From the IMG/VR virus record IMGVR_UViG_2529292886_000013: DNA of 9,895 nucleotides; one strand, written 5' to 3'. The stretch comes from a virus (lineage: Duplodnaviria; Heunggongvirae; Uroviricota; Caudoviricetes). The notes beneath the pieces are model-generated. The model was not told where the DNA came from. It worked only from the letters and a program-made list of their open reading frames with translations, and searched no databases. Positions 7,612 through 7,783 of this stretch are shown piece by piece; the stretch's first letter is position 1; the number at the start of each line of letters is the position of its first letter. A program made the translations under genes and the position numbers.

Positions 7612-7643
7612 TATGCCAAAAATAAAGGCCGACTATGCGGCCT
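7612..7643 (-). terminator. Putative intrinsic terminator (minus strand) directly after the 43-codon ORF
   Basis: Stem AGGCCG (7626-7631) / CGGCCT (7638-7643) with loop ACTATG. On the minus strand it is followed by UUAUUUUUGG (plus-strand CCAAAAATAA, 7616-7625). Confidence 0.4.
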
Positions 7644-7647
7644 GAAA

Positions 7648-7779
7648 TTACTTAACCAATGATGCTGCATATTCGATAAGGTAAAGCTTTGGGGCCAGCC
7701 AAATTTTTAACCAAGTCATATTGGTTACTACACCAATAATAAAAATCCCCCACAGAGTCAAAACTCCAACCAATGGCAT
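7648..7779 (-). CDS. Hypothetical 43-aa hydrophobic peptide in the non-lambda junction segment (speculative)
   Basis: Hand translation: MPLVGVLTLWGIFIIGVVTNMTWLKIWLAPKLYLIEYAASLVK. Bounded by an in-frame stop upstream and TAA at 7648-7650, 4 nt before a stem-loop terminator. No convincing Shine-Dalgarno or promoter found. Confidence 0.25.
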   Translation of the reverse strand: MPLVGVLTLWGIFIIGVVTNMTWLKIWLAPKLYLIEYAASLVK

Positions 7780-7783
7780 GATA

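Follow-up and report, generated by a model that had tools for sequence, protein, structure and literature searches.

Gene content of the window

The stretch of DNA that was analysed (the window, 9,895 nucleotides) begins with ybhC (1-1284, minus strand), followed by int, xis, exo, bet, gam, kil, cIII and ea10 (minus strand, lambda-type) and, to the right of the segment that carries the ORF described below, by a partial O gene, P, ren and ninB, all on the plus strand. The window belongs to a lambdoid prophage that is integrated beside ybhC, at the attachment site of lambda. On the minus strand at 7648..7779 lies an ORF of 43 codons with a hydrophobic product (MPLVGVLTLWGIFIIGVVTNMTWLKIWLAPKLYLIEYAASLVK), in which one transmembrane segment was predicted (hydrophobic core LVGVLTLWGIFIIGVV). 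Its stop codon occupies 7650-7648, and an in-frame TAA is found at 7806-7804, 24 nt upstream of the ATG and within DNA derived from O. Four nucleotides after the stop codon the minus strand carries a terminator-like hairpin (7626..7643; a stem AGGCCG/CGGCCT of 6 pairs, 5 of which are G-C, with the 6-nt loop CATAGT), and this is followed by the T-run TTATTTTTGG (7625-7616). The hairpin was the sole terminator-like site that a terminator scan reported in 7400-8400, and a 51-nt fold over it has an energy of -12.3 kcal/mol (z = -2.1). Both the hydrophobic ORF with its upstream in-frame stop and the GC stem-loop plus U-run 4 nt behind it are present as an earlier note, made from the sequence alone, had described them.

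According to BLAST, window 6550-7636 is 98.9% identical to lambda 33000-34087, from ea10 to the stop codon of ral, of which window 7636 (lambda 34087) is the last base. The homology to lambda restarts at window 7789, which corresponds to lambda 38911 in codon S76 of O. The earlier note had put these two limits near 7630 and 7784, right to within 5-6 bases, and had read the site as a deletion junction that joins the early-left region to O, which is borne out by the lambda BLAST and by the comparison with intact prophages given below. The end of the lambda-type sequence (a mosaic boundary at 7636..7637, without strand) falls within the loop of the terminator hairpin, and in lambda a degenerate copy of the hairpin is found after ral.

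Two minor features of the left part can be added. The cIII RNA thermometer (Rfam RF01804; 6966-7024, minus strand) is intact, with a score of 88.5 bits, though the promoter of the operon is gone. A perfect 9-bp inverted repeat (GTGTATTCA...TGAATACAC) at 7563-7590 is conserved in lambda, Sf6 and HK633; it falls in the boundary sequence bsq4 of the Sf6 record, and on the minus strand no T-run follows it.

Relation of the ORF to a longer phage gene

The DNA between the two lambda limits, which the earlier note did not recognise, is indeed absent from lambda, but it is well represented elsewhere. A search with window 7612-7783 gave 388 matching records, corresponding to some match in 386 of the 5,426 complete E. 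coli genomes; in 113 of these genomes the match spanned 80% or more of the query, many of the matches being full-length and 100% identical, and a further 113 matching records came from phages. The identity was 97.7-98.3% with phages HF4s and Gally and with two Stx2a phages, and 85% with Salmonella phage Oslo. The segment thus hits known phages and prophages, the kind of match that the earlier note had considered, but not as non-coding DNA: in the annotated relatives (H10407, CB9615, HF4s, Gally, Oslo, HK639 and Sf6) it is the 3' end of a longer CDS on the minus strand.

For instance, the prophage of ETEC H10407, which occupies the same ybhC site, has a gene of 450 bp (encoding WP_000392424.1) between ea10 (encoding a DUF2528 protein) and ral, and the same arrangement is found in O55:H7 CB9615 (WP_000392419.1). 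The copy in HF4s (QOI58141.1), directly downstream of N, is annotated as a 'TM helix-containing protein', and GALLYPH_30 of Gally, AMBK_46 of Oslo, HK639_44 and gene 34 of Sf6 (encoding gp34) have the equivalent place in the early-left operon; HK633 also has a member of the family. In the loci that were compared, the parent gene lies at 9037-9486 of L003, at 6037-6486 of L010 (CB9615), at 3037-3486 of L001 and L002, and from 1501 onwards in L006-L009. In many lambdoid prophages the gene sits in the pL operon between ral and ea10, and lambda lacks it.

Translation of the H10407 gene yields a protein of 149 aa that ends in exactly the 43-aa sequence (C-terminus ...DINLLIMPLVGVLTLWGIFIIGVVTNMTWLKIWLAPKLYLIEYAASLVK). 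The ORF in the window is exactly residues 107-149 of this protein, the mechanical ORF beginning at the internal Met107. The part of the gene that is left in the window (7648..7788, minus strand) comprises parent codons L104-K149 and the stop codon and is 100% identical to the 3' ends in H10407 and CB9615. Window 7637-7788 as a whole is, very probably, the 3' end of an accessory gene of lambdoid phages with its own intrinsic terminator.

The full 149-aa protein matched the PHROG 3054 profile end to end (profile positions 1-137, E 2.8e-64), and the 43 aa alone matched positions 100-137 of 137 (E 2.8e-17). In a tblastn search with the 149 aa, 175 of the 177 matching phage records covered at least 80% of the full length, the matches being in lambdoid, P22-like, Vibrio, ~70-kb Salmonella and ~145-kb rV5-like phages. 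Members of the family measure 121-149 aa, with a near-invariant N-terminal part of ~40 aa, a near-invariant C-terminal WLKIWLAPKLYLIEYAASLVK and a variable hydrophobic core between them; the 149-aa protein has two hydrophobic stretches. In an alignment of seven full-length relatives the last 22 residues were almost invariant, and the position of Met107 was occupied by Leu in Oslo and by Val in HK639 and Sf6. Over the 43-codon stretch the synonymous differences per site exceeded the non-synonymous ones, both in the comparison with Oslo (0.218 versus 0.116) and in that with HK639 (0.727 versus 0.290). The earlier note had put forward this comparison as a check on the ORF, and the excess is there, but the copies compared are full-length genes; what the excess shows is purifying selection in genomes where the stretch belongs to the full gene.

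The terminator likewise has counterparts in the relatives. A nearly identical hairpin directly follows the stop codon of the homologous gene in Sf6, Oslo has a variant, and at this site HK639 has a different hairpin with a T-run, which its record labels a terminator. The hairpin in the window is the parent gene's own 3' terminator, and since the full-length genes of relatives carry an equivalent one, the compact layout of ORF and terminator is inherited from the full gene. We considered the name lambda tL2a for the hairpin and dropped it, since the Sf6 record puts the lambda-homologous tL2A further downstream, just before gene 33.

Sequence searches with the intact 149-aa parent in Pfam, NCBIfam, PADLOC and PDB gave no match, so that no function could be transferred to it, and a literature search for Sf6 gene 34 or the PHROG 3054 family returned nothing. 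The intact family is widespread in temperate as well as virulent phages and has very conserved termini, and its function seems worth determining. In HK633 a single intact member of 121 aa is present (L009 1501-1866), but the record splits it into two CDS (HK633_045 and HK633_044), which looks like a mis-annotation.

The deletion junction and the O remnant

The comparison with intact prophages located the junction at 7788..7789 (without strand), where the sequence reads CCAATGGCATGATAAGAAG|AGCGAGATTACAAAG. To the left it abuts parent codon L104 and to the right O codon S76, with 0-1 bp of microhomology. In a base-by-base comparison with H10407, the left arm matched through 7788 and the right arm from 7789 onwards, 3,527 bp being missing in between. 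Relative to CB9615 the missing interval is 3,746 bp (L010 6179-9924) and holds codons 1-103 of the parent gene, ral, two small hypothetical ORFs at the place where N lies in relatives, hicA, hicB, genes for a LexA-type repressor and for cro-like and cII-like proteins, and codons 1-75 of O. On the basis of the lambda map and the comparison with lambda, we take the deleted interval to have included the operators and promoters of pL and pR and the promoter region of oop as well; pL is the promoter from which the parent gene would naturally be transcribed. The left arm is 99.56% and the right arm 98.3% identical to CB9615; the first 139 bp of the right arm are free of mismatches.

The remnant of O (7789..8396, plus strand), delimited by comparison with lambda, starts at codon 76 and is thus 5'-truncated. 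It is also frameshifted: relative to lambda and CB9615 a second deletion, of 67 bp, lies between iteron 1 and iteron 4 (7905-7930), which shifts the reading frame of O and leaves one of the four ori iterons (~7911-7927). RefSeq describes the corresponding stretch in O157:H7 PV15-279 as 'replication protein, frameshifted; incomplete; missing N-terminus'. The prophage of H10407 has the identical 67-bp iteron loss in an otherwise complete O (labelled 'frameshifted' in RefSeq).

The break shares 0-1 bp, which argues for illegitimate recombination. O55:H7 is given as the accepted ancestor lineage of O157:H7 in PMC7175801. It is therefore parsimonious to derive the junction by deletion from an ancestor like CB9615, and we infer that the event was a deletion and not an insertion. 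The true ancestor was not CB9615 itself, given that the right arm is only 98.3% identical and that the 67-bp iteron deletion comes in addition; recombination with another prophage may also have been involved in the history of the junction. The course of events would then have started from a prophage resembling that of CB9615 at the lambda attachment site (on the ybhC side), in which one illegitimate deletion of ~3.7 kb joined codon 104 of the parent gene to codon 76 of O. This deletion would have taken away the N-terminal 103 codons of the parent gene, ral, the N region, hicAB, the repressor gene, cro, cII and the start of O, and pL, pR and the oop promoter would have been lost with it.

We therefore consider it highly probable (roughly 93%) that the ORF is the leftover tail of a 149-codon membrane-protein gene, situated at a deletion scar in a defective prophage. 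The 43-codon ORF would be what a mechanical ORF finder returns for the surviving tail when it starts at the first internal Met.

Expression signals and alternative explanations

The earlier note saw no Shine-Dalgarno sequence and no promoter for the ORF, and the scans and a reading of the sequence before the ATG agree with it. No sigma-70-like promoter was reported on either strand in 7400-8400 by a crude consensus scan, nor a promoter-like site on the minus strand upstream of the ORF (7780-9895), and neither GGAG, GAGG or AGGA nor any Shine-Dalgarno-like run is present in the 23 nt that precede the ATG (TTTGTAATCTCGCTCTTCTTATC). The creation of a promoter at the junction was considered and rejected: on the minus strand at 7780-7900, manual reading gave weak partial hexamers only (TTGACG lacking a usable -10 and GATAAT lacking a usable -35), and the scan reports none. 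As to an antisense RNA, the scan gave no promoter-like site on the plus strand near the ORF, and a search of the whole window against the curated Rfam families returned only the cIII thermometer, with no family at 7400-8000. The remnant, which lacks a promoter, a ribosome-binding site and the N-terminal half, is probably silent. That it is not expressed we infer from the consensus scans, and most likely it has no function either.

When the ORF is set beside known systems, its likeness to toxins of the Hok, Ldr, TisB and Ibs types consists of its small size, its hydrophobicity with one predicted transmembrane segment and the position of a terminator close to the stop codon. Unlike these toxins it is a fragment of a larger gene, for which the consensus scans gave no promoter or translation signals of its own, and there is no conservation as a small ORF, the relatives being 121-149 aa long. 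The PHROG 3054 genes resemble it more closely: the remnant matches the profile, it is identical or 98% identical to relatives at the DNA level over the last 46 codons and the terminator, and it shares their position on the strand of the pL operon, downstream of ral or N and upstream of ea10 or of the cIII-kil block. Its downstream neighbour is ea10 (DUF2528), as in H10407 and CB9615, while the upstream neighbours have been deleted. Unlike the intact genes, which encode the conserved N-terminal ~40 aa, two hydrophobic stretches and the C-terminal motif, it retains residues 104-149 only, that is, the C-terminal 31% (46 of 149 codons), and it lacks the conserved N-terminal 40 residues, the first hydrophobic stretch, the upstream operon and pL.

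The earlier note had compared the ORF and its terminator to a compact gene for a type I toxin, and a functional stand-alone membrane peptide of this or a similar kind, with its own signals and the adjacent terminator, would fit the hydrophobic product with its single predicted transmembrane stretch, the ATG start, the terminator 4 nt after the stop codon and the protein calls that some assemblies have for C-terminal versions of 31-69 aa. This idea does not hold up well against the comparisons and we find it very improbable: the supposed peptide is residues 107-149 of a 149-aa protein, its start Met is not conserved, no Shine-Dalgarno sequence, promoter or antisense partner was detected and Rfam has nothing at the locus, in relatives the terminator goes with the full-length gene, and the junction occurs in only one of the 5,426 complete genomes. 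The short versions do not help it either, the one in context lying beside an IS1 transposase gene and the two other places near contig ends. Equally little weight is given to the idea that read-through antisense transcription might lead to weak translation of the tail, whose product might then affect the membrane, e.g. as a dominant-negative or toxic fragment. Against a silent remnant speaks that TM2 and WLKIWLAPKLYLIEYAASLVK, where the protein is most conserved, survive in the tail together with an in-frame ATG, and judged from the sequence it is conceivable that antisense transcription reads through from the right of the window into the remnant, and also that the remnant undergoes leaky translation.

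A different origin of the junction would be a primary mosaic, formed by recombination between lambdoid phages, in which the full gene and the immunity region had never been carried. Lambdoid phages are mosaic, the homology to lambda stops precisely within the terminator hairpin (7636), and the right arm is less similar to CB9615 than the left arm. Nevertheless, the junction cuts two reading frames with next to no shared sequence, and no viable product results from either. Lysogeny would have been out of reach for a phage that lacked the repressor, N, cro, pL, pR and an intact O, and the interval is whole in close relatives that occupy this att site. The right arm, moreover, starts with 139 bp that match CB9615 without a mismatch; we regard such an origin as very unlikely. 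The suggestion of the earlier note that the ORF could equally be due to chance, i.e. be a frame that happens to be open in a non-coding spacer, finds some ground in the mechanical ORF list, which holds 100 ORFs of at least 30 aa in the window. It is nonetheless the least likely of the explanations considered and can practically be set aside: in the intact homologues the stretch forms part of a coding sequence, by itself it matches PHROG 3054, and its synonymous differences per site exceed the non-synonymous ones. What has kept the frame open is selection on the full gene to which the stretch belonged. The leftover tail of a broken gene thus remains the reading that we prefer.

Short versions of the family

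When a set of 5.8 billion proteins was searched with the 43 aa, the only returns were 11 short proteins (31-69 aa); full-length members of the family were not among them, probably for a technical reason, and the count of full-length members rests on tblastn. All 11 are C-terminal pieces of the PHROG 3054 family that start at internal Met residues. The one short version with its context in a long contig (P0001, 4.4 Mb) adjoins an IS1 transposase gene, and the other two places are close to the ends of contigs. The 11 short matches might have represented a family of small peptides; given the internal Met starts, the IS1 neighbour and the contig ends we rejected this idea, and the short versions look like truncations or cut gene calls. 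The exact 43-aa product was not called as a gene in any assembly of the gene-position index, and the PGAP annotation of PV15-279 has no feature on the stretch. A truncation independent of that in the window was seen in E. coli GCA_900449005.1 (L011 3493-4171): a fragment of an IS1 transposase gene is followed immediately downstream by a C-terminal piece of 56 aa, for which NCBI uses the name 'phage transmembrane protein'. The parent gene appears to have been broken repeatedly in prophages.

Consequences for the prophage and its annotation

On the preferred reading, 150 bp of apparently foreign DNA are accounted for by the 3' end of a phage gene that is already catalogued. Hundreds of public records annotate the parent gene, and a public complete genome contains the junction. 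For annotation it means that the 43-codon ORF is not to be called a gene and would better be flagged as a pseudogene fragment, consisting of 46 codons and the terminator. With the single 3.7-kb deletion the prophage, which is of the E. coli O157:H7 lineage, would have lost its whole immunity and early-control region; because of this loss it should be neither inducible nor able to replicate, and thus locked in place. The surviving red, gam, kil and cIII genes are left without their early promoter, and the N-terminal quarter of O is gone.

The prophage of O157:H7 PV15-279

The exact 7788/7789 junction was found in one of the 5,426 complete E. coli genomes, that of O157:H7 PV15-279 (NZ_AP018488.1), which is 100% identical to the window over 1-5504 and 7644-9895. 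This strain has been described as a beta-glucuronidase-positive, Stx2a-producing O157:H7 in which IS1203 has proliferated (PMC6256406). Its prophage shares with the window both the junction and the single-iteron O remnant and differs by a copy of IS1203 (PV15-279 locus L004 7709-8964), which takes the place of window 5505-7643 (~2.1 kb), i.e. of the N-terminal part of exo, bet, gam, kil, cIII and ea10, and abuts the terminator hairpin of the remnant at window 7644. As PV15-279 has IS1203 where the window has 5505-7643, the window represents the pre-IS state, from a very close relative of PV15-279 without the IS-associated loss. Further to the left, a plus-strand gene at 3135-3732, which measures 603 bp in H10407 and CB9615, is frameshifted in the window (ORFs of 58 and 128 aa) and labelled 'frameshifted' by RefSeq in PV15-279, a further sign of prophage decay.
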